Below are positions 3,238 through 9,639 of a stretch of DNA of 21,272 nt, one piece after another. Both the position numbers and the translations under genes were made by a program. The DNA lies in the IMG/VR virus record IMGVR_UViG_2778261501_000004, positions 1 to 21,272 of that record. The stretch is one strand, 5' to 3'. The DNA comes from a virus. Lineage: Duplodnaviria > Heunggongvirae > Uroviricota > Caudoviricetes. The stretch's first letter is position 1. Every line of letters begins with the position of its first letter. Under the pieces are notes generated by a model. The model was not told the DNA's origin. It made no database searches and worked only from the letters and a program-made list of their open reading frames with translations.

Positions 3238-3509
3238 GTATTCGTATTGAAATTGGCGAACGTTATGTCGTTACCAGTGACAGCTTTCAGTTTATTCTCC
3301 ACGAGAAAAAGAGAGCGGAAAGCGGTAAAAACGCCGGTCAGGAATGGCTGTCGGTGGTTGGTTATTATCCGAAATTAAGCCAGCTCGTTTCCGGCCTGAT
3401 GCATCACGATATTCTGACCGGAAGCGCAAAGTCTTTTGCTGATTTAAACGCGCAGGTTGAGCAACTCAGCAGGCGTTGTTCAGAGGCTTTTGGCTCATAT
3501 GGCCGTTAA
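3234..3509 (+). CDS. hypothetical early protein (P2 orf83 position)
   Basis: 91-aa ORF; ATGA overlap with the previous stop; synteny only. Confidence 0.5.
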   Translation: MSIRIEIGERYVVTSDSFQFILHEKKRAESGKNAGQEWLSVVGYYPKLSQLVSGLMHHDILTGSAKSFADLNAQVEQLSRRCSEAFGSYGR

Positions 3510-5784
3510 AGCCTCCGGGCGTTTTGTCCCTCCGTCAGCATTTGCCGCAGGCACCGGTAAGGCGTTTACCGGTGCTTATGCATGGAACGCGCCACGCGAG
3601 GCTGTCGGGCGCGAAAGACCCCTTACACGTGACGAGATGCGTCAGGTGCAAGGTGTTTTATCCACGATTAACCGCCTGCCTTACTTTTTGCGCTCGCTGT
3701 TTACTTCACGCTATGACTACATCCGGCGCAATAAAAGCCCGGTGCACGGGTTTTATTTCCTCACATCCACTTTTCAGCGTCGTTTATGGCCGCGCATTGA
3801 GCGTGTGAATCAGCGCCATGAAATGAACACCGACGCGTCGTTGCTGTTTCTGGCAGAGCGCGACCAGTATGCGCGCCTGCCGGGGATGAATGACAAGGAG
3901 CTGAAAAAGTTTGCTGCCCGTATCTCATCGCAGCTTTTCATGATGTATGAGGAACTCTGCGATGCCTGGGTTGATGCACATGGCGAAAAAGAATCGCTGT
4001 TTACGGATGAGGCGCAGGCTCACCTCTATGGTCATGTTGCTGGCGCTGCGCGTGCTTTCAATATTTCCCCGCTTTACTGGAAAAAATACCGTAAAGGGCA
4101 GATGACCACGAGGCAGGCATATTCTGCCATTGCCCGCCTGTTTAACGATGAGTGGTGGACTCATCAGCTTAAAGGCCAGCGTATGCGCTGGCATGAGGCG
4201 TTACTGATTGCTGTCGGGGAGGTCAATAAAGACCGTTCTCCTTATGCCAGTAAACATGCCATTCGTGATGTGCGTGCGCGCCGCCAGGCAAATCTGGAAT
4301 TTCTTAAATCGTGTGACCTTGAAAACAAGGAAACCGGCGAGCGCATCGACCTTATCAGTAAGGTGATGGGCAGTATTTCTAATCCTGAAATTCGCCGGAT
4401 GGAGCTGATGAACACCATTGCCGGTATTGAGCGTTACGCCGCCGCAGAGGGTGATGTGGGGATGTTTATCACGCTGACCGCGCCGTCAAAGTATCACCCG
4501 ACACGTCAGGTCAGAAAAGGCGAAAGTAAAACCGTTCAGCTTAATCACGGCTGGAACGATGAGGCATTTAATCCAAAGGATGCGCAGCGTTATCTCTGCC
4601 GCATCTGGAGCCTGATGCGCACGGCATTCAAGGATAATGATTTACAGGTCTACGGTTTGCGTGTCGTCGAGCCACACCACGACGGAACGCCGCACTGGCA
4701 TATGATGCTTTTTTGTAATCCACGCCAGCGTAACCAGATTATCGAAATCATGCGTCGCTACGCGCTCAAAGAGGATGGAGACGAAAGAGGAGCTGCGCGA
4801 AACCGTTTTCAGGCAAAACACCTTAACCGGGGCGGTGCTGCGGGATATATCGCGAAATACATTTCAAAAAACATCGACGGCTATGCACTGGATGGTCAGC
4901 TCGATAACGACACCGGCAGGCCGCTGAAAGACACTGCAGCGGCTGTTACCGCATGGGCGTCAACGTGGCGCATCCCGCAATTTAAAACGGTTGGCCTGCC
5001 GACAATGGGGGCTTACCGTGAACTACGCAAATTGCCGCGCGGCGTCAGCATTGCTGATGAGTTTGACGAGCGCGTCGAGGCTGCACGCGCCGCCGCAGAC
5101 AGTGGTGATTTTGCGTTGTATATCAGCGCGCAGGGTGGGGCAAATGTCCCGCGCGATTGTCAGACTGTCAGGGTTGCCCGTAGCCCGTCGGATGACGTTA
5201 ACGAGTACGAGGAAGAAGTCGAGAGAGTGGTCGGCATTTACGCGCCGCATCTCGGCGCGCGTCATATTCATATCACCAGAACGACGGACTGGCGCATTGT
5301 TCCGAAAGTGCCGGTCGTTGAGCCTTTGACTTTAAAAAGCGGCATCGCCGCGCCTCGGAGTCCTGTCAATAACTGTGGAAAGCTTACCGGCGGTGATACT
5401 TCGTTACCGGCTCCCACACCTTCTGAGCACGTCGCAGCAGTGCTTAATCTGGTTGATGACGGTGTTATCGAATGGAATGACCCGGAGGTCGTGAGGGCGC
5501 TCAGGAGCGCATTAAAATACGGCCTGAGAACCTCAAACCGTCAGCAAAGAAACGGAAGCCCGTTAAAACCGCATGAAATTGCACCATCGGCCAGACTGAC
5601 CCGGTCGGAAAGAATGCAAATTACCCGTATCCGCGTTGACCTTGCTCATAACGGTATCAGGCCGCAGCGATGGGAGCTTGAGGCGCTGGCGCGTGGCGCG
5701 ACCGTAAATTATGACGGGAAAAAATTCACTTATCCGGTCGCTGATGAGTGGCCGGGATTCTCAACAGTAATGGAGTGGAAATGA
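3499..5784 (+). CDS. rolling-circle replication initiator endonuclease gpA
   Basis: Large ORF; HUH-type motif (TPHWHMMLF) and tyrosine pair (YIAKYISKNIDGY) typical of P2 A-family Rep proteins. Start taken at ATG 3499 (MAVKASGRF...), overlapping the previous gene; the track's longer ORF starts at 3457. Confidence 0.9.
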   Translation: MAVKASGRFVPPSAFAAGTGKAFTGAYAWNAPREAVGRERPLTRDEMRQVQGVLSTINRLPYFLRSLFTSRYDYIRRNKSPVHGFYFLTSTFQRRLWPRIERVNQRHEMNTDASLLFLAERDQYARLPGMNDKELKKFAARISSQLFMMYEELCDAWVDAHGEKESLFTDEAQAHLYGHVAGAARAFNISPLYWKKYRKGQMTTRQAYSAIARLFNDEWWTHQLKGQRMRWHEALLIAVGEVNKDRSPYASKHAIRDVRARRQANLEFLKSCDLENKETGERIDLISKVMGSISNPEIRRMELMNTIAGIERYAAAEGDVGMFITLTAPSKYHPTRQVRKGESKTVQLNHGWNDEAFNPKDAQRYLCRIWSLMRTAFKDNDLQVYGLRVVEPHHDGTPHWHMMLFCNPRQRNQIIEIMRRYALKEDGDERGAARNRFQAKHLNRGGAAGYIAKYISKNIDGYALDGQLDNDTGRPLKDTAAAVTAWASTWRIPQFKTVGLPTMGAYRELRKLPRGVSIADEFDERVEAARAAADSGDFALYISAQGGANVPRDCQTVRVARSPSDDVNEYEEEVERVVGIYAPHLGARHIHITRTTDWRIVPKVPVVEPLTLKSGIAAPRSPVNNCGKLTGGDTSLPAPTPSEHVAAVLNLVDDGVIEWNDPEVVRALRSALKYGLRTSNRQQRNGSPLKPHEIAPSARLTRSERMQITRIRVDLAHNGIRPQRWELEALARGATVNYDGKKFTYPVADEWPGFSTVMEWK

Positions 5785-6227
5785 TGGCAAAAATTCACGA
5801 GGTAAAGCTGCACGCCAAATATTTTGACCTTGTGCTGGAAGGAAAGAAACGCGCAGAGTTTCGGAAAAATGACCGTAATTATGAGCGCGGGGACACGTTG
5901 ATTTTGCATGAATGGGTACAGGGTGTGTATACGGGGCGAAAGGTTGAAGCCCGGATAACAGATGTTACTGACCTGTCAGACTGGCTGGAAGATTATGTCT
6001 TGCTAAGTATTGAGCGGCTTAATACAGGCGCATATGAGATTGTGAACTGGAAAGAACTTAGTGAGCGTGGTCTGGTATTCAGAATTAATCATGAAATTAT
6101 GCATCAGCTCGGCCTTGCTGTTATGTATGAGCCGGAGACGGGGCTGTCTGGCGGGGCAGTGGTTACTGCGGATGGGATATGGAACTATTCAGATGAACAG
6201 GTGGAGCGTACAAAGCAAAACGGGTGA
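5781..6227 (+). CDS. DUF3850/ASCH-like domain protein (cargo)
   Basis: Start overlaps the A stop (ATGATGG). N-terminal 80 aa (KIHEVKLHAKYFDLVLEGKKRAEFRKNDRNYERGDTLILHEW...) resemble the ASCH/PUA-like DUF3850 fold as I remember it; C-terminal half unassigned. Confidence 0.55.
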   Translation: MMAKIHEVKLHAKYFDLVLEGKKRAEFRKNDRNYERGDTLILHEWVQGVYTGRKVEARITDVTDLSDWLEDYVLLSIERLNTGAYEIVNWKELSERGLVFRINHEIMHQLGLAVMYEPETGLSGGAVVTADGIWNYSDEQVERTKQNG

Positions 6228-6442
6228 CTTGGATAATGCACAGAATACCAGGCGAGATACCGCACCATAAAACTAAAAATATCAAGCTGATGGCTATTGT
6301 TCAGCGTTTACAGCGGATTATGGTCAACGAAAATCTGACGCCCGATGAGCTGGTCGGGTGTGCCGAAATAGTCCGGGATAATTACGGGCGGTTTAACCAT
6401 ATCGGTCAATCAAGAGTTACGCCACCACCACGCAGACGATAG
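6224..6442 (+). CDS. hypothetical small protein
   Basis: 72-aa ORF overlapping the previous stop; no recognisable motif; could be non-coding. Confidence 0.3.
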   Translation: MTWIMHRIPGEIPHHKTKNIKLMAIVQRLQRIMVNENLTPDELVGCAEIVRDNYGRFNHIGQSRVTPPPRRR

Positions 6443-6639
6443 AGAACGCCGCCAGTCGTGAAACTTGTTTTCAGGGCTGGCGGGGTTGAACAACGAGCGA
6501 AGCGAGGCGTTAGCTAGGCTTTCTATATTGTTTACAATTAAACCTATCCAGAATTAATTGGAATTCAATTTGATCTTTTTCTCGCTACATATGGCCACAA
6601 GTACCAAAACGTGAGAACATCAAAGCTAGGCGAAATCTA

Positions 6640-6695
6640 GCTTTTCCATAGGAGTTGTTTCGTTATAATACGCGGTCGGTTTTTAGGAGGGGTCA
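6640..6695 (+). promoter_or_regulatory. candidate promoter and RBS of the methyltransferase gene
   Basis: Perfect TATAAT at 6664-6669 and AGGAGG at 6685-6690, 5 nt before the ATG at 6696; no convincing -35. Confidence 0.35.
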
Positions 6696-7634
6696 ATGCC
6701 AACTGTAGTGTCGCTTTTTTCCGGGTGTGGTGGTTCTGATGCAGGAGTCTTGAAGGCTGGGTTTGATGTTCTAATGGCGAATGACATTTTACCTTACGCT
6801 CGTGATGTGTATTTGGCTAACCATCCAGAAACTGATTATGTTTTGGGTGATGTCTCCACTATTGAATCGTTTCCATCTGCTGAACTGCTGGTTGGTTGCT
6901 ATCCCTGTCAAGGTTTTAGCCAAGGTGGAGTTCGAAAAGCTGATAGAAAAATTAATACGCTATACTTAGAGTTTGCAAGAGCTTTAAGAATAGTTAAGCC
7001 AAAAGCGTTCATTGTTGAAAACGTTTCTGGCATGTTGCGAAGTAACTTTGAACATTTGTTGAAAGATCAGTTCAAGGTTTTCGAAGAGGCTGGTTACAGA
7101 GTTAAATCTAAAATTCTAAATGCTTCTCATTTTGGTGTTGCTCAGGATCGTAAGCGCATTTTTATTGTTGGCATACATGAGAGATTTGGAGTTGATTTTT
7201 CGTTTCCAGTCGCGACTCATGGCGAAGGATTGAAAAGAGTGACTACTATCCGTGATGCGATAGGTTCGTTACCGGAATGGCCTGTTGGAGAGTTTTATGA
7301 TGCCGATTTCCATTGGTATTATTTATCAAGAAATCGCCGTCAGGACTGGGATCAAATCTCAAAAACCATAGTTGCTAATCCAAGGCATATGCCTTTACAT
7401 CCAATTAGTCCAACTCTTATAAAGTTAGGTCCAGATAAATGGCAATTTACATCAAATGAACGTGCACGGCGTTTTAGTTTTCGTGAGGCTGCTTATCTTC
7501 AAGGATTTAGTAATTTAGTTTTTCCTGAAACAGAGCGAGCATCCATGAATATGAAATATACAGTTGTCGGAAACGCCGTACCGCCCCCTTTATTCGAAGC
7601 GGTAGCGCGTTCATTACCTGATATTTGGGATTAA
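6696..7634 (+). CDS. DNA (cytosine-5)-methyltransferase
   Basis: 312 aa with canonical C5-MTase motifs in order: I FSGCGG, IV PCQGFS (catalytic Cys), VI ENV (FIVENVSG), VIII QDRKR, X GNAVPPP. AT-rich relative to phage backbone. Confidence 0.9.
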   Translation: MPTVVSLFSGCGGSDAGVLKAGFDVLMANDILPYARDVYLANHPETDYVLGDVSTIESFPSAELLVGCYPCQGFSQGGVRKADRKINTLYLEFARALRIVKPKAFIVENVSGMLRSNFEHLLKDQFKVFEEAGYRVKSKILNASHFGVAQDRKRIFIVGIHERFGVDFSFPVATHGEGLKRVTTIRDAIGSLPEWPVGEFYDADFHWYYLSRNRRQDWDQISKTIVANPRHMPLHPISPTLIKLGPDKWQFTSNERARRFSFREAAYLQGFSNLVFPETERASMNMKYTVVGNAVPPPLFEAVARSLPDIWD

Positions 7635-8560
7635 CTCAACACATAATCCATAGCCACTAAGTCATCAACAAACGTTAGATTGTCTTGGTGGTTTATCTGT
7701 GGATATTTTTTAGTCAGATTTACTAGTCTAAGTCTATCAACAAATATTGCAGCACCAAAATCACTCCTGTGAGCCCAGTCGCGGTTATGCCATCTTAAAT
7801 CTTGTGGAAGAAAATAATATGTTGACCATGGATGTAAGACAGGAAGCAAATTCCACAATTTAGCCGGTGTGGCCTCAAGTTGTTTTGCTACCCATTCAGT
7901 TTTTGAACATCCACATTGAGCAAGAGCAAGAGGTATAGACTCACGATTATCTCCCATATCATGCCAAGCGAGTATATCAATTCCTCCATCTCCCCTGTCA
8001 TTTGGTTTGAAATCTTCAATTGAAAAATTAGCTTTACATCTGAAATCTTGTGCTATTTTAGTTAACTTATCAAAGAGTAAGCCAGTGTAGTGACCTGAAT
8101 TACCTGCGCTAGCCCAACAGTGTTTAACTGTTGCTCCTTCAGGCATGAGGGCTTGAAATATGGGATAGCTTATTTTCTCAAATGCACTTGTAAATATGTC
8201 ACGGTGACTATTTTCTATATATTTTATATTTGCACAGGCTAAGAGTGCTATGTATAGTTTTTCATTTTGATTGTAATCAGCAATATTATGCTTTCTTAAG
8301 AATAATGTGTCTCTGTCATCAGAAAAATAAAAGGGGTAATCATCACCGAAAAGGCTAATTCTTGTGTCAATGAATGTCGCTGCAAAATTCCATTTATCGT
8401 CAGAATACCCGCGTGACTTTGGATTTGCTTGAGACCTAAAGAGGCTTGCTAGATCTCCTCTACTAAAGCATTTGTCTGTATTTACTGTAGCCCATAACTC
8501 TAAATAGTCGCCCCATAAATATGGCTCGTTATCGGGTAATGAGTCCATGTGAAAAATCAT
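7631..8560 (-). CDS. putative nuclease, Mrr-like PD-(D/E)xK signature (cargo, second gene of minus-strand pair)
   Basis: 309-aa ORF; start ATG overlaps the stop of the upstream gene (TAATG); contains NDRGDGGIDILAW followed by a Q-x-x-x-x-K region, reminiscent of the GDGGID core of Mrr-type restriction nuclease domains. 3' end overlaps the MTase stop by about 4 nt. Confidence 0.55.
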   Translation of the reverse strand: MIFHMDSLPDNEPYLWGDYLELWATVNTDKCFSRGDLASLFRSQANPKSRGYSDDKWNFAATFIDTRISLFGDDYPFYFSDDRDTLFLRKHNIADYNQNEKLYIALLACANIKYIENSHRDIFTSAFEKISYPIFQALMPEGATVKHCWASAGNSGHYTGLLFDKLTKIAQDFRCKANFSIEDFKPNDRGDGGIDILAWHDMGDNRESIPLALAQCGCSKTEWVAKQLEATPAKLWNLLPVLHPWSTYYFLPQDLRWHNRDWAHRSDFGAAIFVDRLRLVNLTKKYPQINHQDNLTFVDDLVAMDYVLS

Positions 8561-9639
8561 TATTCATCTTCCTCACGGATGCTTTCAATTTGTTTTTTAA
8601 TTTTACGCGCTATAGATAATATTTCACTCGAACGATATTCGTGATTTTCTGTGAAAGAGTGCGTGTTGAGAAGCATATCCCAAACAACTCTTAGTCGAGA
8701 TTCTGCTTGGTCTAGAGCTTGATCCAAAGCCTCTTCATGACCATTTGTATATAAATAGGCTTCTTCAATGTTTTTAGACTTTATGAGGTTATCTATTGCT
8801 GCTTCATTGGCAACTATTGTTGAAAGATTTTTGATCTTGCGACTTTCACCAATGATAGTATCACCCTGTTGATCTCTAACAAAGAACCAAGCAAAAAGCT
8901 TCTCAAGGTTTTCCTCTTTCAGGTTTTTAGCAGATAAATCTTTTCTATCATCTAAGCCTAACCAGTCTGTAATGTTAGTATATCCAAGAGCTGTTGTTAT
9001 GTAGGAAAAATCGACATCATTCTCACTCATATGCAAATTATAGAAGTTTTTATCAGCAGCGGTTTCATATAATTTGAGTGAAGTTAATAAAAGGCCGACG
9101 TAATAAGATTTACTGCCAATTTCTTTAGCTAATGACTTTAAAAGAGATTCTTTGTCTGCACCTTTGTAGAAAGTTTCACTAAGCTCCTTAAGATACTTAG
9201 CTTTAGAAAGTGCATCCCATTCTTTCACACCAGTAATGTGTCTATATCCGATATAACGTAACACATCTTCACGTCTTGTGTAGACGAGACAAGGTAATTT
9301 AGTCGGTTTATAAGTAGCATCGTCCTGAATTAGTTGAATGCTTTTTTCTTTTCTTTTAGGTGGTAAAAGTTCGCTATTGAGCAACTTTACGGCAGCAAGG
9401 CGACGGTTACCCTCAACTACAACATATTTTTTCCCGGAACTAACCACTAAAAGAGGTTCTCCGGGAAAGTAATCTTGTTCCCCTATGGACAGCATCAAAT
9501 CTTGTACACTTTCGTCATCAAGCATTTCTTCAATGACGGCATTTTCAGATCCAGCCCTATCGTTTAACCGATAGAAACGTGGGTTTTCAGGATCAAACTC
9601 TAGATCTTCCGTGTTTATGTATTTGATTTCGTTGCTCAT
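8560..9639 (-). CDS. ParB/Srx N-terminal domain protein (cargo, first gene of minus-strand pair)
   Basis: 359-aa ORF; residues 1-90 show the ParB N-terminal pattern (DPENPRF ... SIGEQDYFPGEPLLVV ... YVVVEGNRRLAAVKLL, i.e. the GxRR arginine box); remainder predicted helical, unassigned. Confidence 0.65.
   Translation of the reverse strand: MSNEIKYINTEDLEFDPENPRFYRLNDRAGSENAVIEEMLDDESVQDLMLSIGEQDYFPGEPLLVVSSGKKYVVVEGNRRLAAVKLLNSELLPPKRKEKSIQLIQDDATYKPTKLPCLVYTRREDVLRYIGYRHITGVKEWDALSKAKYLKELSETFYKGADKESLLKSLAKEIGSKSYYVGLLLTSLKLYETAADKNFYNLHMSENDVDFSYITTALGYTNITDWLGLDDRKDLSAKNLKEENLEKLFAWFFVRDQQGDTIIGESRKIKNLSTIVANEAAIDNLIKSKNIEEAYLYTNGHEEALDQALDQAESRLRVVWDMLLNTHSFTENHEYRSSEILSIARKIKKQIESIREEDE

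Follow-up and report, generated by a model that had tools for sequence, protein, structure and literature searches.

Does the open reading frame that starts on the stop codon of replication gene A act together with the cytosine methyltransferase encoded downstream of it, or is it an independent part of the phage? We addressed this question in the window, the whole 21,272-nucleotide stretch of viral DNA analyzed here (IMG/VR record IMGVR_UViG_2778261501_000004). The features discussed are located in Table 1.

Table 1. Positions of the features discussed, in window coordinates
Feature	Position	Strand	Details
Replication gene A (gpA, rolling-circle initiator)	3499..5784	+	Context gene; TGA stop at 5782-5784 overlaps the orf91 start
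GGAG, Shine-Dalgarno-like motif	5772..5775	+	Lies in the final codons of A; 5 nt separate it from ATG 5781; sequence reading
orf91 orthologue, DUF3850/ASCH plus DUF7415	5781..6227	+	148 aa; phrog_1812 over its full length, E = 3e-78
DUF3850/ASCH (PUA-like β-barrel) domain	5793..6017	+	Residues 5-79; Pfam, PDB 3IUW
DUF7415 domain, helix-helix-strand-strand-helix	6039..6224	+	Residues 87-148; Pfam PF24187
orf92, partner ORF	6236..6442	+	68 aa; phrog_11386, E = 5e-39, aligned from residue 5
Hairpin with 19-bp arms	6445..6487	+	Just 3′ of the orf92 stop; inverted repeat; RNA fold of -29.2 kcal/mol, z = -4.5
C5 cytosine methyltransferase (Dcm)	6696..7634		PF00145, E = 3e-60

The ORF downstream of gene A is P2 orf91

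The ORF is a real gene, because its dN/dS over 43 distinct alleles is 0.31, with purifying selection on both domains of the product, and full-length homologues are known at 52 to 56% identity. It is the orthologue of the already catalogued P2 gene orf91. Its place in that group follows from its position directly 3′ of gpA, in the same orientation and with an overlapping start, and from its similarity over the full length. At the nucleotide level, it matches the orf91 genes of L-413C, Wphi, and other Peduovirus phages at 95 to 97% identity, and it is 95 to 99.6% identical to RefSeq genes annotated as "DUF3850 domain-containing protein." The preceding gene A (775 aa if read from TTG 3457, 761 aa from ATG 3499) encodes a gpA 98% identical to those of P2, Wphi, and L-413C.

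The junction between the two genes reads ...GGAGTGGAAATGATGGCA. As originally predicted, the start of orf91 overlaps the end of A: ATGATGG spans the TGA stop of A and supplies two in-frame ATG codons for orf91, at 5781-5783 and 5784-5786. Judging from its sequence and spacing, the GGAG motif may function as a Shine-Dalgarno element.

orf91, orf92, and a hairpin form an optional block, probably of the early operon

The ORF had been described as the first gene of the cargo region, a description that the distribution of orf91 did not bear out: this is a P2 gene, its place beside gpA is kept down to 52% identity in another genus, and it adjoins at least 39 cargo types. A scan of genome contigs yielded only three loci; loci were instead taken from IMG/VR and from exact-protein look-ups. 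The same cargo was found beside both 93%- and 53%-type orf91 alleles, and the order A-orf91-orf92 is retained in Enterobacter-type P2-like phages at 52 to 56% identity. About 346 of 1,408 gpA-positive E. coli genomes carry the gene (about 25%). The original prediction would have accepted a backbone gene if orf91 were ubiquitous regardless of the cargo downstream; independence of cargo was indeed observed, but ubiquity was not. Variable presence and an intermediate GC content (46 to 49%) speak for a moron; the start on the A stop, the shared strand, the lack of a promoter-like site upstream, and the synteny conserved at 52% identity speak against one. We therefore regard orf91 as probably not a cargo gene, although it is not a backbone gene in the strict sense either.

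Together with orf92 and a terminal hairpin, orf91 makes up an optional block that spans about 5765-6513 and closes what is probably the early replication operon. In almost every one of 80 loci, the 52-to-56%-identity clade included, orf92 comes after orf91; it would encode 72 aa if GTG 6224, which overlaps the orf91 stop, were used. In one case (P0157), its N terminus is fused to DUF7415. The hairpin lies inside the conserved block, which ends near 6513, as does the homology seen in other prophages. It lacks a T-run and is therefore not a canonical terminator; it is probably the 3′ end or a stabilizer of the early transcript. A consensus scan around orf91 and orf92 found no canonical promoter or terminator beyond chance expectation, and no PADLOC or NCBIfam model matched either gene. 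GC content falls stepwise along the region, from 52 to 57% in A to 46 to 49% in orf91 and orf92 and 33 to 41% in the cargo.

This block is probably gained and lost as a unit and dispensable for phage viability; pro483, vB_YpM_22, and HQ103 are viable phages that lack orf91. One preprint calls orf91 "essential" in a methods remark given without data, a claim contradicted by such natural phages. Where E. coli prophages of the P2 type carry orf91, as about one-quarter do, the well-studied gpA-gpQ defence hotspot begins on its left side after the orf91-orf92-hairpin block and not at gpA, which affects how the cargo of this hotspot is delimited.

The product joins a DUF3850/ASCH domain to a DUF7415 domain

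The N-terminal 80 or so residues had been likened to the PUA-like ASCH/DUF3850 fold, and profile searches confirmed this. Both models proposed for the check scored above their curated Pfam cutoffs, DUF3850 (PF12961, residues 5 to 77; E = 6e-18, 65.2 bits against a cutoff of 22.9) and ASCH (PF04266; E = 3e-11, 44.2 bits against 21.2), and residues 4 to 78 matched PDB 3IUW (E = 4e-13), in agreement with a PUA-like β-barrel. The ASCH octapeptide GxKxxExR is present as G21, K23, E26, and R28, and an RKND motif as R28-K29-N30-D31; these positions are 94 to 99% conserved across 115 diverse domains. All residues nearly invariant in that set (H6, K9, K23, E26, R28, N30, D31, R32, D38, and E44) are kept here.

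The C-terminal 70 or so residues, previously left without an assignment, belong to Pfam DUF7415 (PF24187), which matched residues 87 to 126 (E = 8e-14, 52 bits against a cutoff of 27). The domain follows the family pattern W..S..GL..RIN.E..HP.GLA ... DG.W.Y and keeps the invariant residues G97, N103, E105, H108, G111, and S123, with Gln at the usual Pro109 position. AF2 left this domain unmodelled when given only 11 sequences (pLDDT of ~45); an alignment of 104 sequences was used instead and gave a pLDDT of ~90. Structure searches found no PDB relative of DUF7415.

DUF7415 recurs in many settings. Its fusion partners are DUF3850, which may stand on either side of it, a dATP/dGTP pyrophosphohydrolase, and an orf92-like segment. 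It immediately precedes gpA in Salmonella 186-like prophages, neighbors nrdD in T4-like phages, and sits between gpL and gpX in one Pseudomonas phage; in one Salmonella prophage lineage, a DUF7415 protein precedes, and is coupled to, a Dam methylase. Both DUF3850 and DUF7415 are common in virulent T4-, T5-, and T7-like phages. Two apparent architectures were set aside. Three Cox-DUF7415 "fusions" (P0016, P0021, and P0033) are most simply deletion chimeras in degraded prophages and were not used as evidence, and a locus with DUF7415 next to an integrase (H138), at first sight an independent module of DUF7415, orf92, and Dcm, proved to be a prophage that has undergone an internal deletion.

Possible roles of the orf91 product

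Taking these results jointly, we think it probable that orf91 belongs to an optional early-lytic block of P2-like phages, that its N-terminal domain handles a nucleobase-containing ligand, that its C-terminal domain is an adaptor, and that it has no partnership with Dcm. The product is likely to be an early-lytic protein that the phage can do without and whose substrate or ligand, bound or processed, is nucleic acid or nucleotides. Literature searches found no functional data on DUF3850, DUF7415, or orf91, and we infer ligand, activity, and partners from homology, fusions, and gene position. Production would probably be confined to lytic growth, with transcription from the early promoter and translation by re-initiation at the A stop, as the ATGA overlap and the GGAG 5 nt upstream suggest. 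The DUF3850/ASCH barrel most likely binds, and possibly hydrolyzes, its ligand, which may be RNA or DNA in single-stranded form or else a free nucleotide, perhaps a modified one. DUF7415 appears to be an independent module, probably an adaptor that works together with orf92 and with functions in replication or nucleotide metabolism. This mechanism draws on the ASCH relatives (ac4C amidohydrolase, RNase, and 5hmC glycosylase), on the DUF7415 fusions, and on the occurrence of DUF7415 beside gpA and nrdD.

A possible but unlikely alternative casts the protein as an early counter-defence or host takeover factor, in which a catalytic DUF3850 pocket would destroy or sequester a modified nucleotide or an immune nucleotide signal while DUF7415 and orf92 provided targeting. 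The gene occurs patchily, at the margin of a defence hotspot, and shows recombination at the level of domains and an intermediate GC content; all of this would fit such a factor, as would placement in the lytic operon rather than expression in lysogeny and the spread of both domains among virulent phages. The dense invariant charged residues resemble an active site, the ASCH relatives hydrolyze cytosine derivatives, and DUF7415 is fused to a dNTP pyrophosphohydrolase. However, PADLOC has no match for orf91, DefenseFinder-based surveys find almost no known anti-defence genes in P2 (PMC13586616), and the idea is entirely inferential. A further reading, which we regard as speculative and rather doubtful, would make orf91-orf92 a two-gene early-lytic counter-defence or nucleotide-processing module, with the densely conserved DUF3850 pocket as a hydrolase or trap for a modified cytosine-type or immune signaling nucleotide and DUF7415 as a new small adaptor fold common to temperate and virulent phages.

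We consider it quite unlikely that the protein is a replication accessory acting with gpA at the nicked origin or on the displaced single strand, with ASCH binding single-stranded DNA and DUF7415 contacting gpA. Translational coupling to gpA, synteny kept down to 52% identity, and the adjacency of DUF7415 to gpA in two arrangements, in which it follows A (P2-like phages) or precedes it (Salmonella 186-like prophages), speak for this role. However, about 75% of gpA-positive prophages, as well as the viable phages named above, do without orf91, P2 itself lacks the DUF7415 domain, and DUF7415 also occurs between gpL and gpX in a Pseudomonas phage, as well as in T4- and T5-like phages, which lack gpA.

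The downstream methyltransferase belongs to a separate cassette

The original prediction placed orf91 just upstream of a cytosine methyltransferase and suggested that the two might be functionally linked. A C5-methylase gene does lie downstream; it is not immediately adjacent, being separated from orf91 by orf92 (from 6224 or 6236 to 6442), the hairpin, and a spacer of ~250 nt. In every case examined, Dcm was paired with two convergent genes, one encoding a 309-aa protein and the other a ParB-N-like protein. This trio is also found where orf91 is absent: in phage HQ103, in about 46 E. coli genomes, and in Pseudomonas phage D14A, where it occupies another site in the genome. E. coli prophages of the DETEC-S560 type likewise carry the Dcm cassette without orf91. 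Homology between HQ103 and the window resumes at 6590, indicating that the cassette brings its own upstream region, which here contains TATAAT (6664-6669) and AGGAGG. By its sequence features, Dcm is part of a separate, self-contained, low-GC cassette of three genes with promoter-like signals of its own.

Dcm is present in 141 of 346 orf91-positive E. coli genomes (41%) versus about 46 of about 1,060 orf91-negative ones (about 4%), an enrichment that is weak evidence because the loci are physically linked and clonally related. Among IMG/VR loci, a C5-methylase accompanies orf91 at only 13 of 79, representing 6 of 39 cargo types, and at none of 20 loci of the divergent clade. Set against the 3 or so of about 45 cargo types sampled from Rousset Table S5A (PMC9122126), of which term counts and one part of ~88 loci were covered, the difference in rate by cargo type is indistinguishable from chance. 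A functional link between orf91 and Dcm is unsupported.

It is accordingly very improbable that the ASCH-like protein reads 5-methylcytosine laid down by Dcm, the two forming one functional unit. The proposal has some appeal, since PUA-like domains (SRA, EVE, YTH, and some ASCH) recognize modified bases, at least three Dcm lineages are found beside orf91, Dcm is enriched in orf91-positive genomes, and a DUF7415 protein precedes Dam in Salmonella prophages. However, a C5-methylase is missing from 59% of orf91-positive E. coli genomes, from 66 of the 79 IMG/VR loci, and from 33 of the 39 cargo types; Dcm keeps to its two convergent partners with or without orf91; orf91 and Dcm differ in GC content and predicted transcription unit; and DUF3850 and DUF7415 are abundant in virulent phages. 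The notion that orf91 is a functionless, decaying remnant is highly improbable: truncations and chimeras are frequent in prophages and P2 carries only half of the gene, but both domains are under purifying selection (dN/dS of 0.31), the family-invariant residues are all intact, and the gene persists in synteny across genera at 52% identity.

An optional early-lytic gene with a probable nucleobase-ligand domain and an adaptor domain thus remains our preferred reading. Because orf91 is a known P2 gene with no dependable tie to the methylase, the finding is largely ordinary. DUF3850 and DUF7415 are very common phage domains, and biochemical screening of them would be reasonable in view of their repeated fusions and their strongly conserved polar residues. 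Further study would be better directed at the Dcm/309-aa/ParB-N-like trio, which acts like a mobile cassette in different phage genera, than at orf91.

Comparison with known systems

Within the ASCH superfamily, E. coli YqfB is an N4-acetylcytidine (ac4C) amidohydrolase (PMC9599836), and other relatives are an RNase, ZmASCH, and a 5hmC glycosylase whose fold resembles that of ASCH. YqfB and its human counterpart in activity, EOLA1, share just 12 to 13% identity with the orf91 protein. When the octapeptides are aligned, the Lys and Arg of the YqfB catalytic set (Lys21, Thr24, Arg26, and Glu74) are kept, whereas the position of the nucleophile, Thr24, is occupied by Glu26. By the nucleophile position, the orf91 protein is not a YqfB-type enzyme, and YqfB chemistry is not simply transferable to orf91.

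A DUF3850 domain is also shared with the phage-enriched ParB-CTPase-DUF3850 prophage fusions (PNAS 2025, PMC12704722) and with the "RNA-binding protein" family phrog_986. The fusions have an N-terminal ParB-CTPase fold and adjoin parA, while the orf91 protein has no ParB domain. PDB 3IUW, an Enterococcus faecalis "activating signal cointegrator" from structural genomics, is a stand-alone DUF3850 protein of 83 aa, to which the window protein adds DUF7415. Conversely, stand-alone DUF7415 proteins (57 to 90 aa) of gammaproteobacterial prophages and T4- and T5-like phages are 45 to 60% identical to the C-terminal domain of orf91; they are mostly single-domain and are encoded elsewhere in the genome, upstream of gpA or of Dam, between gpL and gpX, or next to nrdD.

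The closest systems are P2 Orf91 (AAD03307), its full-length orthologues in L-413C and Wphi (gp91/gp92), and phrog_1812, which share with the window gene its position, the ATGA overlap with gpA, and the DUF3850 N-terminal domain. In Wphi the gene is annotated as two ORFs. P2's own Orf91 is a 109-aa protein without DUF7415, owing to a 232-bp deletion that corresponds to window positions 6005-6236 and after which tin and old follow.

Results

A P2-like (Peduovirus) prophage makes up the window; most of it matches P2-like phages of Yersinia and Escherichia at 96 to 97% identity, and the region of interest is 99.6 to 99.9% identical to E. coli PSS-08-2. In GGAGTGGAAATGATGG, the TGA stop codon of replication gene A lies at 5782 to 5784 and the first ATG of orf91, preceded by GGAG 5 nt upstream, at 5781 to 5783, confirming the original prediction that orf91 starts on the A stop; the ORF (5781 to 6227) encodes 148 aa. 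This arrangement is the one annotated in P2, Wphi, and L-413C, and the overlap is kept in all close relatives sampled, while a 5-nt gap replaces it in a divergent clade (the stop codon ends at 6995 and the following gene begins at 7001).

Of 5,426 complete E. coli genomes, 1,408 have a gene A 3′ end of this type. The original prediction treated orf91 as a cargo gene, with ubiquity as the mark of a backbone gene; it is not ubiquitous (full length in only 346 of the 1,408 genomes), yet its position beside A is conserved. Wherever present, orf91 directly follows A, and the next gene is nearly always a conserved ORF of 68 to 72 aa (phrog_11386), here called orf92. The divergent clade keeps the A-orf91-orf92 order, although orf91 is only 52 to 56% identical there, compared with ~74% for A and ~78% for Q. 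In pro483, vB_YpM_22, and HQ103, all of them isolated and viable, cargo comes directly after A, without a full orf91. P2 orf91 has been termed "an essential protein," with no data given (bioRxiv 10.1101/2025.08.28.672839, methods), a label that these natural phages contradict; the gene is dispensable.

Nucleotide homology of other prophages extends to ~6513, just beyond a strong hairpin. Lacking a T-run, this hairpin does not qualify as a canonical intrinsic terminator; the early transcript could end here, or the hotspot could have its recombination boundary here. GC content steps downward from A (52 to 57%) through orf91 and orf92 (46 to 49%) to the cargo (33 to 41%). Strictly, orf91 is neither a backbone nor a cargo gene. 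Given its patchy presence, its fixed place after A, the conserved block to ~6513, and the stepped GC content, we read orf91, orf92, and the hairpin as an optional block closing the early operon, placed between A and the gpA-gpQ hotspot already described (PMC9122126; PMC13586616).

Features of the orf91 region and the adjacent cassette (window coordinates unless stated)
Feature	Coordinates	Strand	Remarks
Hairpin	6445-6487		19-nt arms; -29.2 kcal/mol, z -4.5; immediately 3′ of orf92 stop, within conserved block
P2 deletion	L001 (P2, AF063097) 3421-3750 vs window 5701-6263		Counterpart of 6005-6236 (DUF7415 and orf92 start) gone; tin/old next
Dcm methylase	6696-7634	+	Cassette gene
309-aa protein	7631-8560	-	Convergent; no Pfam or PDB match
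359-aa ParB-N-like protein	8560-9639	-	Matches N-terminal part of PD-Lambda-5_A models and PDC-M38A model (PADLOC)

The proposed N-terminal ASCH/DUF3850 resemblance was borne out by Pfam HMM searches (DUF3850 at residues 5 to 77, E 6e-18; ASCH, E 3e-11). The sole solved relative detectable by sequence is 3IUW (E 4e-13), and the AlphaFold model of the orf91 protein, built on a 104-sequence alignment, has a mean pLDDT of 87. The ASCH octapeptide GxKxxExR is found as G21, K23, E26, and R28. Residues H6, K9, K23, E26, R28, N30, D31, R32, D38, and E44, conserved at 95 to 99% among 115 diverse DUF3850 domains, are all present in the window protein. YqfB-type amidohydrolases have a nucleophilic Thr (PMC9599836); the orf91 protein has Glu at that position and by this criterion falls outside the YqfB type. 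Elsewhere, DUF3850 stands alone in T7-like, T1-like, mycobacterial, and Gram-positive phages or is fused to DUF551 or ParB-CTPase domains.

The C-terminal ~70 aa, initially left unassigned, are DUF7415 (Pfam, E 8e-14), modeled by AlphaFold as helix-helix-strand-strand-helix; structure searches detected no solved relative, and we found no literature on this domain. For nearly all of the 4,959 representative proteins recovered in an exhaustive search (E ≤ 0.001), the match is confined to one half of the orf91 protein; the two domains are separate modules. Both are under purifying selection (dN/dS of 0.24 and 0.38). DUF7415 mostly occurs as a stand-alone protein of 57 to 90 aa in gammaproteobacterial prophages and also in T4- and T5-like virulent phages, adjoining nrdD in the T4-like ones. 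Representative P0046 carries the two domains in reverse order, and P0135 and P0138 are fusions of DUF7415 with a dATP/dGTP pyrophosphohydrolase. In P0157, a metagenomic protein of 188 aa, DUF7415 forms the C terminus and shares the chain with a ClpX-type zinc finger and an orf92-homologous N terminus (34% identity, pairwise E 4e-8), an architecture suggesting that orf92 and DUF7415 act together.

DUF7415 genes also occupy other sites in P2-like prophages. In Salmonella 186-like prophages, gpA is immediately preceded by one such gene, stand-alone and coding for 63 aa (L098, 5001 to 5192). In another Salmonella lineage, the gene codes for 135 aa and overlaps the start of a Dam-type methylase gene, which gpA follows (L105, 5001 to 5408). 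In a Pseudomonas prophage, one coding for 69 aa separates gpL from gpX (L102, 5001 to 5210).

A functional link between orf91 and the downstream cytosine methyltransferase had been suggested. A homologous Dcm lies downstream in 141 of the 346 orf91-positive E. coli prophages, and the raw enrichment is real (41% versus about 4%), but its source is adjacent, clonally inherited loci. Since the Dcm family is present in 187 E. coli genomes altogether, ~46 carry it without orf91. The one of these examined, strain DETEC-S560, has the order A, Dcm (WP_001143636), hypothetical, ParB-N protein, portal, which matches in full the "DNA_methylase + hypothetical + ParBc" arrangement given in the portion of Rousset Table S5A covered (PMC9122126). 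The 79 orf91-positive IMG/VR loci represent 39 cargo types, one of them common to 93% and 53% orf91 alleles; a C5-methylase occurs in only 6 types (13 loci) and in none of the 20 divergent-clade loci of this sample. Set against roughly 3 of ~45 in that portion of Table S5A, 6 of 39 allows no claim of a methylase excess beside orf91 by cargo type. In all cases examined Dcm is accompanied by the convergent gene pair, and only in some by orf91; the suggested link is unsupported.

The cassette directly follows gpA in Yersinia phage HQ103 and the ~46 E. coli genomes. Homology between HQ103 and the window stops at 5764, inside A, and restarts at 6590, ~100 nt upstream of the Dcm start; the cassette thus carries its own upstream region, which includes TATAAT (6664 to 6669) and AGGAGG ahead of the ATG. 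In Pseudomonas phage vB_PaeM-D14A (Citexvirus), the trio (62% identity for Dcm, 29% for the 309-aa protein, 43% for the ParB-N protein) is flanked by tail gene D and the regulatory region, at a great distance from any gpA. These data demonstrate that Dcm is part of a separate, mobile cassette of three genes, a candidate restriction-modification-like defense system. The stretch from 6590 to 9639 behaves as one mobile, self-contained unit, of the type of mth/gp96/gp98 in Wphi.

Discussion

Repressed in the lysogen, the P2 early promoter Pe drives an operon whose last gene is A. From this established biology, lytic growth would bring expression of orf91 and orf92, with transcription reading through and translation re-initiating. 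By homology, the conserved polar pocket of the DUF3850 barrel probably binds, and perhaps hydrolyzes, a nucleobase-containing ligand. Fusions and neighborhoods suggest that DUF7415 cooperates with DUF3850 and orf92, and its gpA, Dam-gpA, and nrdD neighbors and dNTP pyrophosphohydrolase fusion point to a probable tie to replication or nucleotide metabolism genes. The role of orf91 may lie in counter-defense, nucleotide housekeeping, or help for gpA; that it is an uncharacterized early counter-defense or nucleotide-processing module we consider unlikely. Known activities of the ASCH superfamily are ac4C deacetylation (YqfB and EOLA1; PMC9599836 for YqfB) and RNA cleavage (ZmASCH), and BapA, of ASCH-like fold, excises 5hmC.

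Many complete E. coli chromosome records, e.g., NZ_AP027679.1 and NZ_CP116094.1 (L107), place orf91 at exactly 2283 to 2728 and therefore begin at the first base of P2 gpA; such assemblies were apparently rotated to the prophage "replication" gene rather than dnaA.

P2 orf91 is entered as "unknown" in comparative tables, and RefSeq labels orf91 a DUF3850 or ASCH domain protein; in Rousset et al. (PMC9122126), it was gene 3 of the old-tin clone, without a separate test. In the Wphi record (L002, AY135739, 4001 to 4516), the region is annotated as gp91 (93 aa) and gp92 (64 aa), the latter distinct from the 72-aa ORF that we call orf92. The Wphi region nevertheless aligns with residues 1 to 142 of the single 148-aa gene, and the two-ORF annotation may reflect a frameshift or a sequencing artifact. 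Homology between P2 and the window ends at 6004 and restarts at 6237; thus, P2 Orf91 is a 232-bp deletion derivative without DUF7415. The window gene is the already known P2 orf91, and its copy does not depart from the family; to this our analysis adds the DUF7415 assignment and model, the orf91-orf92-hairpin block with its boundaries, the deletion origin of P2 Orf91, and the recognition of Dcm as part of a separate cassette.
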